This document shows positions 1-26,922 of a stretch of 64,000 nt of DNA, piece by piece (position 1 is the first letter of the stretch; every line of letters begins with the position of its first letter). Under the pieces are notes generated by a model. It worked only from the letters and a program-made list of their open reading frames with translations, ran no database searches and was not told the DNA's origin. The translations under genes and the position numbers were made by a program. Where the stretch lies: NCBI RefSeq assembly GCF_055900595.2, contig NZ_CM148325.1; one strand, written 5' to 3'.

Positions 1-183
1 CTCCATTCTCGAAAAATTCATACTCTCAGCGAAACCATCATCAATCACTCATCCAGGCGTTTATGGGAGCGTCGCCAATGGCTGCTAACAATGCCAGACT
101 TCCCCGTTGCCGAAATTCCACATACCACAAATGGTCACAGGGATTGGGTGTTGAAATGATCCGGATGAGCATGTATCTTTATA

Positions 184-201
184 GTTATGTTATAACATAA
201 C
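184..201. promoter_or_regulatory. Zur-box-like perfect palindrome GTTATGTTATAACATAAC upstream of ykgM
   Basis: 18-bp perfect inverted repeat 12 bp upstream of the ykgM start; ykgM-ykgO is a known Zur-repressed operon. Confidence 0.6.
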
Positions 202-212
202 AGGTAAAAATG

Positions 213-476
213 ATGAAACCCAATATCCATCCTGAGTATCGTACTGTGGTGTTCCATGACACCAGTGTTGATGAGTACTTTAAAATCGGCTCGACTATCA
301 AAACAGACCGTGAGATTGAGCTGGATGGCGTAACGTATCCGTACGTGACAATTGATGTCTCTTCGAAATCGCACCCGTTCTATACAGGGAAGCTGAGAAC
401 AGTGGCATCAGAAGGAAATGTTGCACGGTTCACCCAACGTTTTGGTCGTTTTGTTAGCACGAAAAAGGGGGCGTGA
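213..476 (+). CDS. ykgM: 50S ribosomal protein L31 type B (zinc-independent paralog)
   Basis: 87-aa translation [16 protein letters not shown]... matches YkgM/RpmE2; second in-frame ATG chosen. Confidence 0.9.
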
Positions 477-616
477 TGAAAGTCCTTAACTCTCTGCGTA
501 CCGCAAAAGAACGCCATCCAGACTGTCAGATTGTGAAGCGAAAAGGACGGCTGTATGTGATTTGTAAATCTAATCCACGTTTTAAGGCCGTTCAGGGGCG
601 TAAGAAAAAGCGTTGA
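476..616 (+). CDS. ykgO: 50S ribosomal protein L36 paralog
   Basis: 46-aa [34 protein letters not shown]..., ATGA overlap with ykgM stop. Confidence 0.85.
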
Positions 617-1134
617 TTCATAATTCGCCGGATTAACGATATTTGTCTGATTAATAATCAGACCGGATTAATGTTGGTGTGTTTATAACACCAACATTAA
701 TTTCCTGGGGATATATTCTTCCTGTTCATTTAAAGCCAACTGCCTGACGTTTCTCTCCGAATATTCCATTATATTAATGTTGATTTGTTGACCAGCTTCG
801 CCCCTGTATGCTGGTATCAACTCTCTTTTAGACTGAACAAGCCACTCCGCCCCCTCCCTTTGCGGAGCAGCCTGCATTTACACTCAAACTGTTAAGATGA
901 TAAATGTGGTAAATCTGTTGGTACTAACATAAAAACGTTTACGCCACAGGAACAGCCTGATCCACCAGTAACCCCATCGCCGACGTTCGAGTGCCAGTTA
1001 GAGTAACGCGCACAGATGACTGCACGCAGTGCCCTGTCAAAGAGGCCATCGTTCCTGTGACAGCTGGCAGCCTTCGTTTAACTTCACTTAATTTGGCTCT
1101 TGGGGGGCTTACCGAACAGGGTAATGACTCCAAC

Positions 1135-1638
1135 TTATTGATAGTGTTTTATGTTCAGATAATGCCCGATGACTTTGTCATGCAGCTCCACCGATTTTGA
1201 GAACGACAGCGACTTCCGTCCCAGCCGTGCCAGGTGCTGCCTCAGATTCAGGTTATGCCGCTCAATTCGCTGCGTATATCGCTTGCTGATTACGTGCAGC
1301 TTTCCCTTCAGGCGGGATTCATACAGCGGCCAGCCATCCGTCATCCATATCACCACGTCAAAGGGTGACAGCAGGCTCATAAGACGCCCCAGCGTCGCCA
1401 TAGTGCGTTCACCGAATACGTGCGCAACAACCGTCTTCCGGAGCCTGTCATACGCGTAAAACAGCCAGCGCTGGCGCGATTTAGCCCCGACATAGCCCCA
1501 CTGTTCGTCCATTTCCGCGCAGACGATGACGTCACTGCCCGGCTGTATGCGCGAGGTTACCGACTGCGGCCTGAGTTTTTTAAGTGACGTAAAATCGTGT
1601 TGAGGCCAACGCCCATAATGCGGGCAGTTGCCCGGCAT
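1135..1638 (-). CDS. insB: IS1 InsB frame (transposase made as InsAB' by frameshifting)
   Basis: 167-aa ORF overlapping insA 3' end in -1 frame, typical IS1 organisation. Confidence 0.85.
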
Positions 1639-1832
1639 CCAACGCCATTCATGGCCATATCAATGATTTTCTGGTGCGTACCGGGTTGAGAAGCGGTGTA
1701 AGTGAACTGCAGTTGCCATGTTTTACGGCAGTGAGAGCAGAGATAGCGCTGATGTCCGGCGGTGCTTTTGCCGTTACGCACCACCCCGTCAGTAGCTGAA
1801 CAGGAGGGACAGCTGATAGAAACAGAAGCCAC
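1557..1832 (-). CDS. insA: IS1 protein InsA
   Basis: 91-aa translation [37 protein letters not shown]... Confidence 0.9.
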
Positions 1833-1949
1833 TGGAGCACCTCAAAAACACCATCATACACTAAATCAGTAAGTTGGCAGCATCACCAAAACCTGCAAAA
1901 ACTCTTAGATCTTTTACAGAGCGAAGATGGATTCAGTAGCAATAAGAAG

Positions 1950-4949
1950 TTGATTGGCAAATTTCGTTTGTTACCGAAAAAATTAACCACAAAGAAAAAA
2001 CATGAATCCCAAAATGGACACGTCCACTTTTCTAATCCTAAACGAGCAGCCGACCATTTATTTAATAATTTTGATCTGATACCAGAGTTTCGTATTATTG
2101 GTGACTTCCCGGTTGATAGTCACATTATCTCTGCACTATGGATTAACATGGTCGGGCATAAATTTGATGCCAGCTTAGATAACTGTTGCTATGGCGCGCG
2201 GCTAAAGCGTATTCGTAATGATGAATTATTTAGCAATGAGCAGGATAATCCATTCCATATCAGTGCAGTGGGTTCTTTTAGCCCCTACTTCCAGCCCTAC
2301 CAAAAATGGCGTGGTGATGGCTTAAAAGCTATACGTGACGAGTTGGAAAAAGATCGTGACATTATCGCCGCCTCACTGGATTTAAAAAGTTACTATCATT
2401 TTATTGATCCACTGGCTATAACCTCTGATGATCTCTATAACACACTAAACATAAAACTGACTGAGGATGAAAAAGCGTTTACTGCACAGTTAGCAGTATT
2501 CTTAAAGCACTGGTCTGACGGCGCAGCGGCATTTGGAAAGAAAATAGCGTACAAAACACCTGTTATTAATGGTGGTCTGGTCATTGGATTAACAGCCAGT
2601 CGGATCATTTCAAATATATTGCTACACCATTGGGATAAATTAGTCATTGAAAAACTATCACCAATTCACTACGGTCGTTATGTCGATGATATGTTCCTTG
2701 TAATACGCGATACAGGGAAAATTACTAATAATCACGAATTTATGTTATTGCTGCAAGATAGGCTTGGCAATGATTGCGTTTATTTGAAAAACGAGCAAAA
2801 ACAAATATGGCAAATACAGCAGGGCGAGCATTTCCAGGGTAAGACCACCATCCAGTTACAATCCGATAAGCAAAAACTTTTCGTGCTTCAAGGGAGGGCT
2901 GGAATAGACCTGCTCGACAGTATCGAAAAGGAGATCTACGAGCTTTCTAGTGAACACCGCTTGATGCCTTCACCGGATCAACTGGAACACTCAACCGCAG
3001 CTAAAGTCCTTTCCGCTGCCGGTAGTGTAGGTGAAAATGCCGATACTCTGCGCCGTGCAGATGGATTAACCATTCGTCGTTTGGGCTGGTCACTGCAATT
3101 ACGCTACGTTGAAACACTGGCACGAGATCTGCCTCCAAGTGAATGGAAAGAACAGCGGGAAGAGTTTTATCAGTTTGCCTACAACCATATTCTTAGGGCT
3201 GATAATCTATTTGCACATTTTAGTTATCTGCCAAGGCTGCTTGGCTTTGCTATCAGTATGAATGAATGGCAGCACGCGGAAACAATTGTACTTAAAGCTT
3301 ACGAATCCATCAACCTGTTGGCATCGGTGATTACTTCAGGTAAGGAAGTGAATATAAATGGTTGCAAAACTCGAGCAGTAAATGATCTTTGGCGCTGTAT
3401 AAAAGGCACATTAAGCTGGCTATTTGTTGATGCAGCGACACGATATTACAGTCCTGACAGATTATTTCTTGATAAACGTTCAAAGAAAGAAGAGTGCCTT
3501 GCGGATACATTTTTTAATCATATTTCACAAAGTCTGACGAATCTAAAGGATTTACTGGATCTTCGCTTTGATTCAGCAGATTTTTATTTAAAAGCGCCAT
3601 TGGTAGCTCGAGCTGATTTAGCAAAGGAACCTTATAAACAGATCGTAAAGAGTCAGTCGGCAGAAAAACTTGTTAATCAGCGTGATAGTAAAAAAGAAGT
3701 TAAAATACTGAAATTAATGAGCGACTCATCGCTTATTGATATTGACGTTATTAAGCTATTTTTGAAATCAACCAAGAATACCCGACTGGAAAAAGTGGCT
3801 AAAGGAAATCGTAAGAACGAAAGTTACCTACCTTACATTTTCCCTACACGTCCTTTAACACCCGCTGAAATATCAGAACTGGCCCCCGAATGTGTTGGAT
3901 TACCCTCCACATCCGACAAAAAACCAGATGAGAGACCGTCCACCATTTGGGCAAAATATACTCAAGCATTACGCGGAGTATGGATCAAACCGACGTTGCT
4001 AGCATCGGAGCAGGACTCAGATGAAGCGACAAAAAAAGCTCGGCCTAAGAAATTCATTCATATTGGCACAGACAGGAAACATAAAGTTGTCGTTGCGCTA
4101 ACCAGCATTAAAACAGAGGAGGACGACTGGGCTAAAATGGCCTGCAATAAATCTAACTTGTCCCGTTCAAGGTACCAGCGGATTTCTGAACTGGTTAATG
4201 CAACATTGAAACTATCTCCTAAACCTGATTATGTTTTATTCCCTGAGCTTTCAATCCCGTTACGCTGGGTTAACAGTATTGCTGATCGTTTGAGTTCGGC
4301 GGGTATCAGTCTAATTGCGGGAACAGAATACCGCCACTTAGACGATAATCAACTGAAGAGTGAGGCCGTACTTGTCCTTTCAGATAACAGACTCGGCTAT
4401 CCAGCGAGTGTCAAAATATGGCAACCCAAGCTGGAACCCGCCGTAGGTGAAGATGAGGCATTATTTTCAACTTATGGTAAGTCTTGGGACTCGACACTTA
4501 ATGTTAAACAACGTAAGCCGGTATATATTCATCATGGCGTCAATTTTGGCGTTATGATTTGCTCTGAACTCCAGAATAGTAAAGCGAGGATCCGTTTTCA
4601 GGGCGCACTCGATGCATTAATGGTATTGAGCTGGAATAAAGATCTAGATACGTTTGCATCGTTGATTGAATCAGCAGCGCTGGATATTCATGCCTATACT
4701 ATTTTAGTGAATAACCGAAAATACGGCGATAGTCGCGTACGTTCCCCGGCAAAAGAACCCTTTATGCGTGATATTGCTCGTGTGAAGGGCGGTGATAATG
4801 ACTTTGTGGTCGCTGCAACGCTGGATATCGACTCGTTAAGGGCATTTCAGAGCAGGGCAAAACGCTGGCCTAAAGGCGGCGATAAATTCAAACCGTTACC
4901 TGAAGGATTCCAGTTGGCAAAGAACCGCAAAAAGCTACCGCCAAAATAA
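1950..4949 (+). CDS. Reverse transcriptase fused to C-terminal nitrilase/C-N hydrolase domain (DRT type 1 / UG1-like); 5' end probably truncated by IS1
   Basis: RT motif A ASLDLKSYYHFID and motif C RYVDDMFLV; C-terminal FPELS...GVMICSELQ (Glu and Cys of nitrilase triad); first start is TTG and frame stays open back to IS1 edge. Confidence 0.7.
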   Translation: MIGKFRLLPKKLTTKKKHESQNGHVHFSNPKRAADHLFNNFDLIPEFRIIGDFPVDSHIISALWINMVGHKFDASLDNCCYGARLKRIRNDELFSNEQDNPFHISAVGSFSPYFQPYQKWRGDGLKAIRDELEKDRDIIAASLDLKSYYHFIDPLAITSDDLYNTLNIKLTEDEKAFTAQLAVFLKHWSDGAAAFGKKIAYKTPVINGGLVIGLTASRIISNILLHHWDKLVIEKLSPIHYGRYVDDMFLVIRDTGKITNNHEFMLLLQDRLGNDCVYLKNEQKQIWQIQQGEHFQGKTTIQLQSDKQKLFVLQGRAGIDLLDSIEKEIYELSSEHRLMPSPDQLEHSTAAKVLSAAGSVGENADTLRRADGLTIRRLGWSLQLRYVETLARDLPPSEWKEQREEFYQFAYNHILRADNLFAHFSYLPRLLGFAISMNEWQHAETIVLKAYESINLLASVITSGKEVNINGCKTRAVNDLWRCIKGTLSWLFVDAATRYYSPDRLFLDKRSKKEECLADTFFNHISQSLTNLKDLLDLRFDSADFYLKAPLVARADLAKEPYKQIVKSQSAEKLVNQRDSKKEVKILKLMSDSSLIDIDVIKLFLKSTKNTRLEKVAKGNRKNESYLPYIFPTRPLTPAEISELAPECVGLPSTSDKKPDERPSTIWAKYTQALRGVWIKPTLLASEQDSDEATKKARPKKFIHIGTDRKHKVVVALTSIKTEEDDWAKMACNKSNLSRSRYQRISELVNATLKLSPKPDYVLFPELSIPLRWVNSIADRLSSAGISLIAGTEYRHLDDNQLKSEAVLVLSDNRLGYPASVKIWQPKLEPAVGEDEALFSTYGKSWDSTLNVKQRKPVYIHHGVNFGVMICSELQNSKARIRFQGALDALMVLSWNKDLDTFASLIESAALDIHAYTILVNNRKYGDSRVRSPAKEPFMRDIARVKGGDNDFVVAATLDIDSLRAFQSRAKRWPKGGDKFKPLPEGFQLAKNRKKLPPK

Positions 4950-5201
4950 GAAACTGATTTTCGCTATTAATAATCAGGGTATTTTTGCGTGAGATGTCGG
5001 TAAACATGATGTAGCTCTTGCCACTCATGACCAATCGCAGTATCTTTCTCCCGCGTCTGCAAAATCAGGCGTCGGGATTAGCCTCCTGAAGAAATCTTAT
5101 CGGCGACACATGACGCGCCAGCGTCTTTTTTTGTGTTGTTCGCACGGTTACACCTCAATGGTGGGCCGGGCGGGGGCGTCGCAAGACGCGCCAGTGTCCG
5201 A

Positions 5202-5295
5202 TAAGGCTGGTAAGGCTAACCCTGCCCGGTTCCACCACCCGCGAGATTAGCCTCTCCGGTGGTGGCTTGAACACCCACTTATCGGAGGTTGCCCT
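5202..5295 (+). promoter_or_regulatory. Conserved leader upstream of paralogous gene (second copy 51929-52022) with two mutually exclusive hairpins
   Basis: About 80 percent identity between the two leaders; stems GGCTAA/TTAGCC and CCACCACC/GGTGGTGG; one compensatory A-T to G-C change in copy 2. Confidence 0.35.
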
Positions 5296-5766
5296 ATGGC
5301 TACAATCCTCACCACTGACAGCGATTTACTCGATCTATTGACCGTCCCCTTCAATGCCACCACGGATTTCACTGTCCTTGCTGACTACTGCGCCCGCTTT
5401 GCCGAAACCCTGATTGAAACCGACGATCCCGCGCTACGACTGGCGCTCTGCGGGCGGCTTCACGCGGCTCTTGCGCTATTGCAACCCACACTACACGACC
5501 CCATCCCACCGCATCTTACCGAAAGCCTGACCGTGGATACCCTTCCCGCCACACCAGAGCACTTTATTTCCGAACCTGATTCCTTGTGCGAATACTGCCT
5601 CGCACTACTCCAGCTTCTGCTGGAACGTCCGGCGGAACCAAAAATGGAGCAAACCCTGACCGGGCTGCTGTGTGAGCTGGTCTGGTATTTCACGGAAGGA
5701 CTCAAAGCCCCGCGCTGGATGCGTACCGCCGACGGCGTAAAATTTATCAGCGAGGTGGCCGCATGA
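5296..5766 (+). CDS. Hypothetical acidic protein (paralog at 52023-52487)
   Basis: 156-aa ORF with GGAGG RBS 7 nt upstream; second diverged copy in window. Confidence 0.6.
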   Translation: MATILTTDSDLLDLLTVPFNATTDFTVLADYCARFAETLIETDDPALRLALCGRLHAALALLQPTLHDPIPPHLTESLTVDTLPATPEHFISEPDSLCEYCLALLQLLLERPAEPKMEQTLTGLLCELVWYFTEGLKAPRWMRTADGVKFISEVAA

Positions 5767-5903
5767 TGCAACAGGACTGGCATTCCGCCGACATTATTGC
5801 GGTGCTGAAAAAGCGGGGAACGCCTCTGGCGGCACAGAGAAAAACTCATTGCGGAAGCGCTGTAAATATCGCCAGAAATCATCTGGTCCTCAAGGTACTT
5901 TGA
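5763..5903 (+). pseudogene. Ner/Nlp-like DNA-binding protein, N-terminal remnant
   Basis: MMQQDWHSADIIAVLKKRGTPLAA resembles the Ner/Nlp N-terminus, then frame degenerates; overlaps integrase fragment. Confidence 0.35.
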
Positions 5904-6103
5904 TAGCAAAGGCAAGCTGGCTGGTTCAGTCCGGAGTCTCTCTTCTTGCACTTAAAGAGATGGGAGGATGGGAAACTCTCAAAAAGGTTCAGAGATACGC
6001 TCACCTTTCAGCCGGGCATCTCACCGAGCACGCAAGCAAAATCGGCACGATCATAAGTCGCAATGGCACAAATACGGCACAGGAGGAAGCGTGGTGTATT
6101 TAA
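5849..6103 (+). pseudogene. Tyrosine integrase C-terminal fragment
   Basis: LLALKEMGGWETLKKVQRYAHLS is a typical recombinase C-terminus with catalytic Tyr region; no N-terminal domains upstream. Confidence 0.6.
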
Positions 6104-6145: not shown

Positions 6146-6206
6146 CAATACACATAGGCGATAAGCTTTGTTTTTGTTGCCTTTTTTATTGTTCATTTTT
6201 TATAGA

Positions 6207-6227
6207 TACCCCCAAAAGTACCCCCAT
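6207..6227 (+). repeat. TACCCCCAAAAGTACCCCCAT motif near attR (copy also at 26714-26734 near attL/int promoter)
   Basis: 21-bp motif present once near each end of the element in the same orientation; possible integrase arm-type site. Confidence 0.4.
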
Positions 6228-6345
6228 ATCTTTTTCCGCCCCTGAAATTTGGTTGTTATTCATACAGCATATCAGGCGGTAACGCTCTCCCTTTAACCCA
6301 CTTATTGTATGATAGTGCTATCCCACAATAAGGAATCAGCCAGCC

Positions 6346-6705
6346 ATGAGAATGACCAGCCGTAAAAAAGAGATACTCAGTTATTTTGAGCCGGATAACC
6401 TAGAATGGGTGACAGGTGAGATTGGTGCGCCGCCGTTCGATGTGTCGGGCGTGGCCTACCTGCTTCATGGCATGGTGTCGTTCGATAAGCGCCACCAGCT
6501 CGAATCAACCCGGCGCACACTGGAAAGCATGGTTGCTGGTGGACTGCTTGAGCGGGTGACAGTGTATGAATCGCGTCAGGTACGGCGCGGCGGTGAGACT
6601 AACGCAACGGTCGTGCGCTACGGTTTACCCGGTCACTGCGCTGTTATGCGCGATACTGGCGGCGCTGATAACGCAATATCAGGCGAATACATGCGGGTCA
6701 GTTAA
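6346..6705 (+). CDS. Hypothetical protein
   Basis: 119-aa ORF, AAGGAA RBS 8 nt upstream; inverted repeat TTATTGT(N16)ACAATAA in promoter region. Confidence 0.5.
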   Translation: MRMTSRKKEILSYFEPDNLEWVTGEIGAPPFDVSGVAYLLHGMVSFDKRHQLESTRRTLESMVAGGLLERVTVYESRQVRRGGETNATVVRYGLPGHCAVMRDTGGADNAISGEYMRVS

Positions 6706-7240
6706 GAGCCTGCAATCTGTCGTTAATGTTGTTCAGGTCGTAAACCCGGCGTTCAATATCCAGCATCAGGAAATCGTGGATCTCGGCCTGTTCAGGATTA
6801 TCAGACTCTCTGGCCTGTAAGAGCAATTCATTGTAACCATGCAAACCACCCGAATTTTCCGCCGGGGTAGTGCCCTTCCCGCGCAAACAGCTAACAGGCT
6901 GGATACTGGTATCATGTGTTTGCTTCTCCAGCACAACAAGGCAATCCCACCAGTCGCCAAAGTCATACGTGTAAACCAGCTTGTCACCCTCATTCTGGAG
7001 CGCCGCCCATAGTGGCGTGATTGCCGCGTTACCCATGCTTTCATCCTCACCCCATACGCGATACTCGCTACCTGGATCACCTTTACGCCCTTTCTCGAAC
7101 ATATACAGGTGTTCGTCATTCCAGCCAAAAGCTAACTGGATCACGGCATGAAGTTTACTAAAGGGGATTTGCTCTGGAACCAGCACACGCCGCCATATTG
7201 GTGGTTTGCTGTCTCGGATGGTTATCTTTATCTGGTACAT
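6698..7240 (-). CDS. pRiA4b ORF-3-like family protein
   Basis: N-terminus MYQIKITIRDSKPPIWRRVLVPEQIPFSKLHAVIQLAFGWNDEHLYMF matches the characteristic start of this family. Confidence 0.6.
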   Translation of the reverse strand: MYQIKITIRDSKPPIWRRVLVPEQIPFSKLHAVIQLAFGWNDEHLYMFEKGRKGDPGSEYRVWGEDESMGNAAITPLWAALQNEGDKLVYTYDFGDWWDCLVVLEKQTHDTSIQPVSCLRGKGTTPAENSGGLHGYNELLLQARESDNPEQAEIHDFLMLDIERRVYDLNNINDRLQALN

Positions 7241-7283
7241 GCGTCGTGAACCAATAGTGTACGTTTAGGTGGGTATTTTTCTG

Positions 7284-7718
7284 CTACTGACCAGGATAGA
7301 GCTGATGTGCCGGGTCAAGCCAGACAATATGGAATACATTACCGATGAAAAATCCATGTATGCGACCATATTCATTGCGCGATATGGCAAATTGATAAGG
7401 TGTATAACTCTGAAACTGTTCATTCAAATGCTGAAATCCCTTAGGTTCAGATGTAGTTTGCCAATCAATCGGATGTGACTTCAACGAACCACCGCGATCG
7501 GTGGTGAACTCTCGTTCAGTCATAGTGGAAAGGTCTTTGAGGCGGTCTAACACCTTGCAAAAATAAACAGGATTCTGAGCGCTGAAAGTAAATTTCTCAT
7601 GCGCCGCATCGATATACCGAAAAGAAAAGTTGATGGTCGTTATGCCTGAACCTGTTCCCCCAGGCACTATTTTTGTTTGCGAGGGTGCAATCTTCGACGC
7701 CCTGATTCTTTTCGCCAT
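7284..7718 (-). CDS. Hypothetical 144-aa protein, candidate toxin/effector partner of Panacea-domain protein
   Basis: ORF starts 2 nt after the stop of the upstream Panacea gene; no recognisable motif. Confidence 0.5.
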   Translation of the reverse strand: MAKRIRASKIAPSQTKIVPGGTGSGITTINFSFRYIDAAHEKFTFSAQNPVYFCKVLDRLKDLSTMTEREFTTDRGGSLKSHPIDWQTTSEPKGFQHLNEQFQSYTPYQFAISRNEYGRIHGFFIGNVFHIVWLDPAHQLYPGQ

Positions 7719-7720
7719 AT

Positions 7721-8176
7721 TTAGGAAGCCATCGAACGATAAAACTCAGCCGTTACACTTTTATCAATAACATTCTTGCACGGCGCATCTGATGGAACCC
7801 CTTCACGGGCCTCCAGCCACGGCTTTTCTTGGTGCGTCATCTGCTCCAGCTCATAAGCTGTATAACCGCCAAATACCTCATAGATTTCCTTTAGATGCTT
7901 TGACACATTCGCAGGTAACTCAGGGCAGGCAATCTCTTCGTCTATTGAGCGCCATTTGTAATCTGCAAATCTGGTATACAAATCTCTGGCTACAGGGCCA
8001 TGTACCCATGCTTCAAACTTGTCAGCAACCAGTTCTTCGCCATCATTCAGCGCCATGAACCAAGCATCAGCATAGAACACCATTTTTTGCAGTTTCAGCG
8101 GCGTCATAACATCCCCATGCTCTTGAGCAAAGCAAAGCAGGTAATCCGCTACGCTGTTAAGGGTTGTAACTGCCAT
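7721..8176 (-). CDS. Panacea-domain protein (DUF4065, GepA/SocA-like antitoxin family)
   Basis: MTPLKLQKMVFYADAWFMAL...EAWVHGPV...YELEQMTHQEKPWLEAREG pattern; start moved to internal ATG at 8176 with AGGAG RBS. Confidence 0.75.
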   Translation of the reverse strand: MAVTTLNSVADYLLCFAQEHGDVMTPLKLQKMVFYADAWFMALNDGEELVADKFEAWVHGPVARDLYTRFADYKWRSIDEEIACPELPANVSKHLKEIYEVFGGYTAYELEQMTHQEKPWLEAREGVPSDAPCKNVIDKSVTAEFYRSMAS

Positions 8177-8497
8177 TATCCAATCTCCTGCCGTATGTTT
8201 TCGTCTATAACTGTCCACTACCGTTAATAATCGCATATAACCACGGGTATTGCCCATCGTAAAATGCCATTTAAAGATTCTGCGTGATGGCTCACCATCC
8301 ACCGCGCAAGATACCCGGTGCGTTTGGCTGATAATCCGCAATTTGGTTGAAACCGTCCTGGAAACCTCAAGTTTGGAAACCAGCGACTTGCATCGTAGCT
8401 TTGCCATTCGGCGGTCATAGTTACTGCTATATCCCTTTATTGGCGAGACCTGCGAGAGGTTTTGTTGTTCGAATATATAAAGGTGAATAAAGGTAAT

Positions 8498-8683
8498 CTA
8501 CCTGCGCGGCGCAGGCTTCTTCCACTGGTAGGCGGGTGATCGCATCATTTCGCGAAATTTGTCACGCCGGGCTATATTGGCATTAACTGAGCGTTCTATC
8601 TCCCGTTGATCTGCCGGGGTTAGCTGGTGGCCTTCGTGCTCCAGTTTGGCGGTGGTCAATAAAGCTATTTCGCGTGGTGTCAT
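8498..8683 (-). CDS. Small hypothetical protein
   Basis: 61-aa ORF, charged and helical-looking, no family recognised. Confidence 0.3.
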   Translation of the reverse strand: MTPREIALLTTAKLEHEGHQLTPADQREIERSVNANIARRDKFREMMRSPAYQWKKPAPRR

Positions 8684-22540: not shown

Positions 22541-22874
22541 GTGCCACCTCCATGCGGATACGACCAGCAAAAAAGCAGACGTGATCGCGCACCAGAGAAC
22601 GGCGAGCATCGCGTTCAGACTCGGCAGCAATATGATGAATTTTGGCGGTAATTGTCGGGCAATCGCGGCGAACTGCGGCGATAATCCAGATAAATTGCGG
22701 TTTTTGGGTAGGGGTAGTAGCCAGCATGTGGCAGCCTCCTTGTACTGGGAATTCTTCCCACCACCGGAGCTGCGAAACTCGCTGGTGGTGGACTGAACAG
22801 AGTTCGCAGTACCGGCGTACAAGGAAACCGGCCAGCCTTTCGGCTGCCCTGTCCAGCCCACCATAATTTTGCAA
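22533..22874 (-). CDS. Hypothetical protein
   Basis: 113-aa ORF with ATG/TGA overlap at 22533-22540. Confidence 0.35.
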   Translation of the reverse strand: MQNYGGLDRAAERLAGFLVRRYCELCSVHHQRVSQLRWWEEFPVQGGCHMLATTPTQKPQFIWIIAAVRRDCPTITAKIHHIAAESERDARRSLVRDHVCFFAGRIRMEVAHD

Positions 22875-23385
22875 GCGACGCGGATTATAACCACATCACT
22901 GAAAAAAGTGTGAGTCTGGCTAACGGCACAAAAAAAGACGCTCGGCGCGTCATGTGTCGCCTCGTACATTTCCGGGCTGCGAAACCCGGCACCCGTTTTA
23001 TGAGGTGCCTTATAACCATAAACCGTGTTGCCGCATAACGGCAAGCTCTTTTTTATGGACTCCGAAAACTCACTATTGGAAGAACCAGAAGCACAGTACA
23101 TCGCGCTCATTTCGTTAACGTCACGCGCGTGGACGAATGTTTTTGTGGAGTCACTACACGAGCGGAAGACATCATCTACGACCAGAAATTTTCTGGCGCA
23201 GCCGCTGACCTTCTCAAGGCTAATATCATCGCCCGAGATTTCTGGTATGGTTAAGGCATCCGTTCCGGCCACCAGCAAATGATAAACTTTGCTTGTATCT
23301 GCTGTATTAATGCCTGACTTTGCCGTCATATTTCTGGATTTTGGCGACATACCAGCCAGTGAAAATGTCTTCTTCTGGATGGGTA

Positions 23386-25466: not shown

Positions 25467-26681
25467 TCATGCGTGTTTTTCAAACACCATATGCACCACA
25501 TTTCCGCCATGCTCGAGAGAATCCATATAGTCGGCATACCATTGAAGCATCTCCCGCCTTCCATCCAGATATTGCGCATGGTTGTATGTGCCACGAATTG
25601 AGTTCTTATCAACGTGAGCGAGCTGCGTTTCTATCCACGCGGTGTTATAGCCCTGCTCATGCAAAATCGTACTCATAGTGTGCCGGAACCCATGACCAGT
25701 TACACGTCCAGCGTAGCCAATGCGCTTAAACACTTGGTTTATGCTGGCCTCGCTCATTGTTTTCCTTGGATCATTGCGCCCGGGAAACATAAGAGGGTAA
25801 TTGCCTGTTATTTCTCTAATCTTCCCAATAAGCGAAAGAGCCTGCTCAGACAATGGCACAATATGAGGCCGCCGCATTTTCATACGTGAAGCGGGTATCT
25901 CCCAGATAGCCTTGTTGAAATCAATTTCATCCCATAATGCGCCACGTAGTTCGCCAGTCCGCAAGCCGGTGATAATCAGTAGACGAGCCGCCATAACAAC
26001 CAATGCGCTTCCTGAGTAACTGGACAATGCCTTGAAAAAATCAGGTAATTCTTTGGCTGTAAGGAAAGGGTAATGATTAGATTCATGGCCTTGCATCGCG
26101 CTAGTAAGGTCTGGTGCAGGGTTATACTCTGCGCGACCAGTGACTATTGCATAGCGGAAAACTTCCCCGCACCGTTGCCTCACTTTTTTGGCTTTTTCTG
26201 TAGCACCGCGCCCCTCGATGCGACGCAGCACATTCAGAAGTTCAAGTGGTTTGATTTCGGCGATGGGTTTTTTGCCAATGTAAGGGAACACATCTTTGTT
26301 GAAGGCTTCGAGGATGTCTGAAGCATAACCAGCAGACCATTTTTTTAATTTGCTGCTGTGCCACTCAAGGGCAATATCTTTGAAGGTGTTGTTTAACTGC
26401 GTTTCCCGGGCAATCTTTTCCTCTCGTTTCGCTTCCATCGGATCGATACCACCAGCGATACCTCTTTTCGCATCTTCACGTTTTGCCCGAGCATCGGCTA
26501 GAGTAACCTCAGGATAAACACCTAGTGCCAATAGCTTCTCTTTACCAGCTACACGATATTTAAGTCGCCAGTATTTACCTCCATTAGGTTTTACCAAGAG
26601 ATACAAACCGCCACCATCGGCCAGCTTGTAAGCCTTCTCTTTTGGCTTGGCTGTGTCTATTTGACGGGCATTGAGTTTCAC
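25467..26681 (-). CDS. P4-type tyrosine integrase
   Basis: 404 aa; MKLNARQIDTAKPKEK... N-terminus, C-terminal HGFRHT...H..Y catalytic region; adjacent to tRNA. Confidence 0.9.
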   Translation of the reverse strand: MKLNARQIDTAKPKEKAYKLADGGGLYLLVKPNGGKYWRLKYRVAGKEKLLALGVYPEVTLADARAKREDAKRGIAGGIDPMEAKREEKIARETQLNNTFKDIALEWHSSKLKKWSAGYASDILEAFNKDVFPYIGKKPIAEIKPLELLNVLRRIEGRGATEKAKKVRQRCGEVFRYAIVTGRAEYNPAPDLTSAMQGHESNHYPFLTAKELPDFFKALSSYSGSALVVMAARLLIITGLRTGELRGALWDEIDFNKAIWEIPASRMKMRRPHIVPLSEQALSLIGKIREITGNYPLMFPGRNDPRKTMSEASINQVFKRIGYAGRVTGHGFRHTMSTILHEQGYNTAWIETQLAHVDKNSIRGTYNHAQYLDGRREMLQWYADYMDSLEHGGNVVHMVFEKHA

Positions 26682-26713
26682 TTGGGGGTACCTCCACTAA
26701 ACCGAACAGCAAA

Positions 26714-26734
26714 TACCCCCATAAGTACCCCCAT
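26714..26734 (+). repeat. TACCCCCATAAGTACCCCCAT motif in int promoter/attL region
   Basis: Second copy of motif at 6207-6227. Confidence 0.4.
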
Positions 26735-26846: not shown

Positions 26847-26922
26847 TGGTGCCGATAATAGGAGTCGAACCTACGACCTTCGCATTACGAATGCGCTGCT
26901 CTACCAACTGAGCTATATCGGC
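26847..26922 (-). tRNA. thrW: tRNA-Thr (anticodon CGU)
   Basis: Reverse complement GCCGATATAGCTCAGTTGGTAGAGCAGCGCATTCGTAATGCG...TATCGGCACCA; anticodon loop TTCGTAA. Confidence 0.9.

Follow-up and report, generated by a model that had tools for sequence, protein, structure and literature searches.

Evidence for a Two-Gene PanA-PanT Module, Probably of the Toxin-Antitoxin Kind, in a Variable Cargo Slot of a thrW-Integrated Element of Escherichia coli

The stretch of DNA analyzed here (64,000 nucleotides of contig NZ_CM148325.1, RefSeq assembly GCF_055900595.2; hereafter the window) is Escherichia coli DNA and contains a mobile element integrated at thrW. A preliminary description, made from the letters alone, had proposed that three minus-strand genes at one end of this element form a cassette with a toxin-antitoxin or anti-phage function. 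Our analysis points instead to a PanA-PanT module of two genes, complete in itself and of the type II toxin-antitoxin kind, occupying positions 7243-8495 in a variable slot of the element, in which PanT would be a RelE-like RNase neutralized directly by PanA; we give this reading a probability of roughly 70%. The third gene, which encodes a pRiA4b ORF-3 family protein, is to all appearances a bystander occupying the same slot separately.

Organization and Conservation of the Gene Pair

The panA gene (7721-8176, minus strand), identified by its PF13274 match and its neighborhood, encodes a stand-alone Panacea (DUF4065) protein of 151 residues, the putative antitoxin. The panT gene (7284-7718, minus strand) encodes a protein of 144 residues, which is predicted to be a toxin of PanT cluster T1 with a RelE/ParE-superfamily fold. 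These two genes are separated by 2 nt, and a gap of 43 nt separates panT from the pRiA4b ORF-3 family gene (6698-7240, minus strand, 180 residues), classified as independent cargo on the basis of its PF07929 match and its neighborhood. The preliminary description was right about the coordinates and gaps of these three genes, since the list of open reading frames (ORFs) agrees with it and RefSeq calls the same three coding sequences at identical E. coli loci. The start of panA is an ATG preceded by a GGAGA Shine-Dalgarno sequence, and the open frame extends to 8407. A leader of 319 bp (8177-8495, minus strand), in which the promoter is presumed to lie, precedes panA within the inserted segment described below.

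The neighborhood of PanT homologs was analyzed at 89 genomic loci, comprising 80 from species-representative genomes (mostly Cyanobacteria, the rest being Gammaproteobacteria, Bacteroidota, Sulfobacillus, and one Fraserbacteria metagenome-assembled genome) and nine obtained by looking up the exact protein or by searching E. coli, and at 15 loci from IMG/VR viral contigs, 14 of which are complete. A Panacea gene is located directly upstream of the 144-residue homolog, on the same strand, at 88 of the 89 genomic loci and at all 14 complete viral loci, i.e., at 102 of the 103 loci carrying a full-length homolog; at the only exception, which is a genomic locus, the Panacea gene lies about 400 bp upstream. 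Over these loci, the degree of identity to the window protein varies in parallel for PanA and PanT (r = 0.80). The spacing between the two genes is mostly between -26 and +12 nt, which corresponds to overlaps of 17-26 nt or gaps of 1-12 nt. The pair shows the architectural features by which PanAT systems were defined (Kurata et al., 2022): its genes are at most 100 nt apart, they occur together in at least two species, and they do not form part of any conserved longer operon.

Homologs of the pRiA4b gene, by contrast, were found near the pair at none of the 89 genomic loci and at none of the 15 viral-contig loci (flanks of 3-4 kb). Four diverged copies of the pair in E. coli, located at other sites, lack them as well, and no third gene accompanies the pair consistently at the genomic and viral loci. 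The co-occurrence of the three genes in other genomes, which the preliminary description had put forward as a check, is thus not borne out. The synteny data (pRiA4b at 0 of the 104 other panAT loci) and the boundaries of the indel described below together rule out the three-gene cassette. Several points do speak for a functional cassette having the pRiA4b ORF-3 protein as its third component, whether toxin, accessory, or regulator. The three genes lie on one strand with small gaps, no terminator-like site is present between panT and the pRiA4b gene, so that read-through co-transcription is possible in this strain, and the arrangement is kept over the whole stretch at at least 99.5% identity in 20 of the 5,426 complete genomes and at 98.2% in two more. 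These 22 E. coli genomes, however, carry near-identical copies of one element and therefore do not constitute independent evidence.

The Variable Cargo Slot

The pair is bordered by two genes which recur in related elements, namely orf61 (8498-8683, minus strand), which opens the slot, and orf119 (6346-6705, plus strand), which closes it. At the same chromosomal place in E. coli EC931, orf119, the pRiA4b gene, orf61, and the PerC gene are present and the Panacea pair is absent. The homology between EC931 and the window, amounting to 96-98%, stops at 7242 and resumes at 8496: the 1,253-bp segment specific to the window (7243-8495, containing panA, panT, and the leader), which has been either inserted or replaced, corresponds to 116 unrelated bp in EC931. 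The pair is therefore a clean indel beside a pRiA4b gene which is otherwise 96% identical.

Other elements show the same separation. In five Enterobacter/Citrobacter-type elements, orf61 is followed by the pRiA4b gene and the convergent orf119, without the pair, whereas on the viral contig of locus L109, orf61 is followed by panA, panT, and the convergent orf119, without the pRiA4b gene. At loci L103-L108, the genes located between panT and orf119 encode an IS3 transposase, a 229-residue unknown protein, and a KilA-N-like protein. Because the contents differ among EC931, the Enterobacter/Citrobacter-type elements, L109, and L103-L108, orf61 and orf119 can be said to frame a variable cargo slot, which is occupied independently by the PanA-PanT pair and by the pRiA4b gene. 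Sister elements carrying one of these occupants and not the other also contradict a three-gene unit, and as a conserved system the three-gene cassette is refuted by these comparisons.

In Enterobacterales, the slot was observed to hold pRiA4b alone, PanAT alone, PanAT with pRiA4b, or PanAT with IS3, with the gene of the 229-residue protein, or with a KilA-N-like gene. This variation was seen at loci L002, L096-L100, and L103-L109, within an element family of the integrase-primase-PerC type. The orf61/orf119 slot may be a hotspot which would reward mining for defense genes.

The Putative Toxin

PanT has 209 relatives in a large protein collection, all of which are unnamed and devoid of Pfam domains, and a profile search extended the family to 1,269 clusters at 50% identity, nearly all consisting of stand-alone proteins of about 140-150 residues. 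In an alignment of 56 relatives, the invariant residues were found to be F31, S32, Y52, R59, H82, W86, T89, F95, Q109, F110, G118, R119, H121, G122, F123, F129, V132, W133, D135, H138, and Y141. The AlphaFold2 model of the protein (mean predicted local distance difference test score, 84.5; predicted template-modeling score, pTM, 0.75) begins with a tail of about 27 N-terminal residues, basic and disordered, and continues with a beta-alpha-alpha-beta-beta-beta arrangement, in which an invariant Arg and an invariant His are carried by strand beta-3 and an invariant His and an invariant Tyr by the C-terminal tail. This model can be superposed on the solved structures of RelE, HigB, YoeB, and ParE, and the predicted fold would be that of the RelE/ParE superfamily.

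We take it that RelE, YoeB, YafQ, and HigB carry their catalytic residues at the places where PanT has its invariant beta-3 Arg/His and C-terminal His/Tyr. Judging from their position in the model, H82, R119, H121, H138, and Y141 are candidate catalytic residues. Since this placement resembles that in RelE, YoeB, YafQ, and HigB, an RNase seems more likely than a ParE-like gyrase poison.

The C-terminal part of PanT matches the NCBIfam model NF046006 (MAG6450) with 30.3 bits (E 4.9e-7), a score below the 40-bit cut-off of that model; cyanobacterial relatives of PanT score 26 bits and the PanT of phage Emek 14 bits, and the literature on MAG6450 was uninformative. No significant match to PanT was obtained in phage genomes by tblastn. 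Truncated alleles of the PanT family (61, 79, 89, and 93 residues; clusters P0008, P0027, P0031, P0035, and P0052) were observed repeatedly in Salmonella, Proteus/Providencia, and Klebsiella.

The Putative Antitoxin

The identification of the first gene as Panacea in the preliminary description is confirmed by a Pfam match to PF13274 (SocA_Panacea) at 2.8e-17, which covers residues 29-120 of PanA and positions 1-112 of the 113 in the model; RefSeq also names the product a Panacea domain-containing protein. This domain is the only one detected by Pfam, and there is no helix-turn-helix, PAD1, or zinc-binding extension. The NCBIfam model SocA_antitoxin (NF047745) gives 59 bits (4e-16), below its cut-off of 190 bits. 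PanA antitoxins have been reported to bind and neutralize their toxins directly (Kurata et al., 2022; PMC8832971), stand-alone ones doing so via the Panacea domain itself, which has been proposed as a possible sensor as well (Ernits et al., 2023; PMC10440598). When PanA and PanT were modeled by AlphaFold2 as a single chain fused through a (G4S)5 linker, using 31 paired rows, a pTM of 0.77 was obtained and the linker was disordered. This value exceeds what would be expected of two independently placed domains, which suggests that the two proteins may form a defined complex.

The Cylindrospermopsis raciborskii virus RM-2018a (MH636380, locus L012) carries a PanA gene (1483-1941) whose product shares 46% identity with the window PanA. 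Downstream of it the annotation shows no PanT gene, tblastn found no match to PanT in the phage collection, and a CRISPR array is annotated 180 bp downstream of this PanA gene. T1 PanAT pairs are present in genomes of the Cylindrospermopsis host (Kurata et al., 2022, Dataset S1; PMC8832971), and the orphan PanA of this cyanophage could serve in counter-defense.

Assignment to PanT Cluster T1

In the study in which PanAT systems were defined, the partner toxins were sorted into 88 clusters, and T1, the first cluster in the table, consists of predicted mRNases from many phyla, encoded after stand-alone ("noNTD") PanA antitoxins (Kurata et al., 2022; PMC8832971). Several observations link the window PanT to this cluster. 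At the locus of Flavihumibacter petaseus NBRC 106054 (L088), PanA (2433-2918) and the 144-residue homolog (2911-3342) overlap by 8 nt; the fact that this is the overlap recorded in the T1 table entry (PMC8832971) supports the T1 membership of the window PanT. Two other T1 genomes, those of the filamentous cyanobacterium CCP2 and Nostoc carneum NIES-2107, carry the pair. The PanT of Salmonella phage Emek, another T1 member, is remotely homologous to the window PanT, as matches by BLASTP (2e-5, about 24% identity over the C-terminal 45 residues) and by hhalign (95% probability) show, and both proteins match phrog_8366. On the strength of these observations, the window PanT is assigned to cluster T1. 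The suggestion that the toxic component may be undescribed therefore holds only in part: the protein has no Pfam family and no biochemical characterization, but it is already catalogued as a PanT of cluster T1, a predicted mRNase.

The published tests of T1 members gave differing results: a Clostridium cadaveris member was toxic and was not rescued by its own PanA (PMC8832971), and those of E. coli MOD1 and phage Emek are taken up below. Emek PanT has no counterparts of R119, H121, and H138, and its published annotation is 161 residues long and overlaps panA by 62 nt (locus L011, 1883-2368), whereas a near-identical E. coli gene is annotated by RefSeq as encoding 139 residues, starting with MARKSK 22 codons downstream (locus L101, E. 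coli W4, 1055-1474). The Emek result may thus have been obtained with a protein carrying 22 extra N-terminal residues. The E. coli MOD1 pair (WP_077635758/WP_089622957) was not found among the loci examined from complete E. coli genomes. None of the three tested T1 members can be assigned to the subfamily of the window PanT, which is characterized by H82, W86, R119, H121, and H138.

Proposed Mechanism and Alternative Readings

The idea that a Panacea-based, toxin-antitoxin-like module is part of the mobile-element cargo, with the 144-residue protein as its likely toxic partner, is supported by these data. The module would work as follows. Given the 2-nt gap in the window and the overlaps of 17-26 nt in most relatives, panA and panT would be co-transcribed and translationally coupled. 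PanA would bind PanT directly and hold it inactive, as described for stand-alone Panacea antitoxins and as the confident fused-chain model suggests. With its RelE/HigB/YoeB fold, PanT would most likely cut mRNA on the ribosome via H82, R119, H121, H138, and Y141, as its fold and its conserved residues indicate. Speculatively, the loss of PanA, or a cue such as phage infection, would then allow PanT to halt translation, whereby the infection would be aborted or the element stabilized. The location of the module is compatible with a defense or exclusion role: it lies downstream of ejection-protein genes and PerC, at 2.3 kb from an RT_UG5-nitrilase gene of the defense-associated reverse transcriptase (DRT) class, and in Emek, a P22-like phage, as well as in a prophage of E. 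coli, the T1 pair follows a gene encoding a DNA-transfer protein.

Various results weigh against this picture. As regards the fold, Foldseek ranks RelE/ParE-superfamily families first, but with E values of 0.13 or worse and target-normalized template-modeling scores of 0.45-0.57. Pfam gave no match to PanT at E ≤ 10, in line with the lack of any recognizable motif noted in the preliminary description, and none at E ≤ 0.001 when the 56 relatives were scanned singly. Searches of PDB sequences with phmmer and hmmsearch yielded only spurious beta-secretase matches, and hhalign comparisons with HigB and YoeB gave probabilities below 1%. The RelE/ParE fold also includes gyrase poisons, and the pTM of the fused chain is an indirect indicator of a complex between the modeled proteins. 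In terms of function, the E. coli MOD1 and Emek members of T1 were not toxic in E. coli (PMC8832971), we know of no toxicity, neutralization, or RNase assay on the subfamily to which the window PanT belongs, and PADLOC has no defense-system model matching PanA or PanT. Lastly, a scan of the panA leader for consensus sigma-70 sites detected no promoter.

The alternative that survives best is that the pair does not work as a classical toxin-antitoxin system that arrests growth: PanT might be latent, doing no harm when simply overproduced, and be activated only by a phage-derived cue sensed via Panacea, or else the pair might serve the mobile element in a regulatory, non-toxic capacity. We hold this to be unlikely. 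It draws on the fact that two of the three tested T1 members were non-toxic in E. coli, on the position of the pair within prophages and satellites, in moron or cargo slots (after the DNA-transfer protein gene in Emek and the E. coli prophage, and here after the ejection genes and PerC), and on the cyanophage orphan PanA, which could be a counter-defense protein. The other side of the balance includes the toxicity of one T1 member and the antitoxin-first order and tight coupling, both typical of type II systems. The non-toxic Emek protein, furthermore, lacks the invariant, putatively catalytic residues of the window subfamily and is annotated as starting 22 codons upstream of the position used by RefSeq for the near-identical E. 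coli gene. The truncated PanT alleles, which are common in Salmonella, Proteus, and Klebsiella, would also fit the frequent inactivation of a costly toxin.

A more specific form of this alternative, which we likewise regard as a rather long shot, is that the T1 subfamily carrying H82, W86, R119, H121, H138, and Y141 might represent a separate kind of RelE-like nuclease, strictly coupled to Panacea, which stays latent until the stand-alone Panacea protein senses a phage cue. If this were true, the module would be a trigger-activated abortive-infection system housed in prophage and satellite slots rather than a classical addiction module, and phages would counter it with orphan PanA proteins such as the Cylindrospermopsis virus copy.

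It is also conceivable, but improbable, that PanT is no RNase and puts its RelE/ParE fold to a different use, for instance to poison DNA gyrase in the manner of ParE: the membership of gyrase poisons in the same superfamily is consistent with this, and the placement of the invariant Arg, His, and Tyr residues argues for an RNase. The functional three-gene cassette is hardly credible in view of its absence from all the other panAT loci and the presence of the pRiA4b gene, orf61, and orf119 without the pair in EC931 and the five Enterobacter/Citrobacter-type loci. The two-gene PanA-PanT module having a directly neutralized, RelE-like PanT remains our preferred reading.

The Host Element and Its Other Genes

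The tRNA-Thr(CGT) gene is located at 26847-26922 and is adjoined by the integrase gene (25467-26681). The element measures about 20.7 kb, and the three genes are located at the end opposite the integrase. The genes between the integrase and these three encode an Ant-like protein, a TOPRIM-DUF927 primase, a head-morphogenesis protein, three P22-type DNA-ejection/transfer proteins, and a PerC-like regulator, as well as C4 antisense and isrK RNAs. The thrW element is a mosaic, prophage- or satellite-like element of E. coli.

Repeats of the GTACCCCCAT type are clustered at both ends of the element, at 6206-6227 and 26682-26734; ATACCCCCAaAAGTACCCCCAT and ATACCCCCAtAAGTACCCCCAT share 21 of their 22 positions, and a copy in inverted orientation is found at 26682. 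Throughout the window, eight GTACCCCCAT-like repeats with at most one mismatch were observed, versus 2.6 expected. They may be arm-type sites of the integrase marking both ends of the element. A classical tRNA-derived attR repeat of at least 15 nt was sought and none was found. The statement in the preliminary description that the genes lie at the cargo end of the thrW element, next to attR, is therefore correct as regards the integrase-distal end, and the adjacency to attR is plausible.

Two pairs of isrK and C4-antisense RNA genes (Rfam RF01394 and RF01695) were observed. One of them (22781-23008, minus strand) is inside the thrW element, and the other (5053-5242, plus strand) is in a remnant to the left, where it adjoins a C-terminal integrase fragment (5849-6103). 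This suggests the presence of two P4/P1-type immunity regions and of tandem or nested mobile elements at this locus. A neighboring element remnant carries the RT_UG5-nitrilase gene mentioned above (1950-4949, plus strand), whose 999-residue product combines a reverse-transcriptase motif (YVDD) with a nitrilase domain at its C-terminus and matches the PADLOC model RT_UG5-nitrilase at 7.7e-288. Only two complete E. coli genomes cover positions 1-6100 of the window to at least 80%.

Concerning the slot borders, orf61, a gene of the element backbone, matches phrog_7271 (3.3e-5) and is located directly upstream of the pRiA4b gene in panAT-less elements and of panA at L109. The orf119 product (119 residues) has no Pfam, NCBIfam, PADLOC, or PHROG match. 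The gene is convergent with the pRiA4b gene, the 3' ends overlapping by 8 nt, and its homologs are convergent to the slot whatever the cargo, be it pRiA4b only, panAT only, or other genes. As it keeps the slot border in all these cases, the possibility that it might belong specifically with pRiA4b, or with the pair, as a partner was rejected, and orf119 is an element backbone gene rather than a cassette partner. The operator-like inverted repeat which the preliminary description had noticed beside this convergent gene is indeed present at 6301-6332, 14 nt upstream of the orf119 ATG (15-nt arms, 87% complementary, 2-nt spacer), and might possibly be an operator. A weak inverted repeat (8421-8440/8477-8496) is also found in the panA leader.

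The pRiA4b protein, as had been expected of the third gene, matches Pfam PRiA4_ORF3 (PF07929) at 6.5e-42, over positions 3-167 of the 173 in the model. It also matches PDB entry 2i1s (an MM3350-like "hypothetical protein") at 1.7e-21, which is its only solved relative. As cargo of this slot it is very common, its cluster at 90% identity having 426 members in E. coli, Shigella, Enterobacter, Citrobacter, and Klebsiella. A literature search on pRiA4b ORF-3 function returned nothing relevant, and this gene should not be annotated as part of the module. In PADLOC-DB 2.0, PanA, the pRiA4b protein, orf119, and orf61 had no match and PanT had only a marginal one (NsnC, E 0.027).

Comparison with Known Systems

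T1 is a cluster without a Pfam family, a solved structure, or a demonstrated activity, and the few members tested have shown mixed toxicity. The E. coli copy described here is a tractable, native-host representative of T1 with clear candidate catalytic residues, and the sister strains lacking exactly the 1.25-kb module provide natural controls, EC931 being one of these and Survcare253 a strain that has the module.

The RelBE, HigBA, YefM-YoeB, and DinJ-YafQ systems are type II systems whose toxins belong to the RelE/ParE superfamily and cut mRNA in a ribosome-dependent manner. PanT shows no significant sequence or profile similarity to these toxins; it is about 50 residues longer, its basic N-terminus is disordered, and it has an additional conserved loop, HP(I)xW. 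Antitoxins of the RelB/HigA/YefM type are DNA-binding proteins with a disordered tail which wraps around the toxin, whereas PanA consists of a globular Panacea domain. The type VI system SocAB of Caulobacter crescentus is related to the pair through its antitoxin, as SocA is the founding Panacea protein and PanA matches the SocA/Panacea domain. The resemblance does not go further: the 59 bits scored by PanA are to be compared with the SocA equivalog cut-off of 190, PanT is unrelated to SocB, and SocA acts by way of ClpXP, as an adaptor through which the toxin is degraded, while direct binding to the toxin was demonstrated for PanA proteins (PMC8832971).

The closest likeness is to the T1 PanAT pairs of Emek (YP_006560565/YP_006560566), F. 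petaseus, and the cyanobacteria, in which a stand-alone Panacea antitoxin likewise comes first and is followed by a coupled or overlapping toxin of about 140 residues. In all these toxins the N-terminal tail is basic, one strand reads FSF(K/R)Y, and the motif (V/I)WLD..(L)Y is found at the C-terminus, and the pairs, like that in the window, are found in prophage cargo slots. Within this cluster, the PanT of Emek (Salmonella phage vB_SemP_Emek) differs in lacking the invariant H82, W86, R119, H121, and H138 of the window subfamily. The window pair is an ordinary, uncharacterized member of the known PanAT class, and characterizing it would refine this existing class rather than open a new one.

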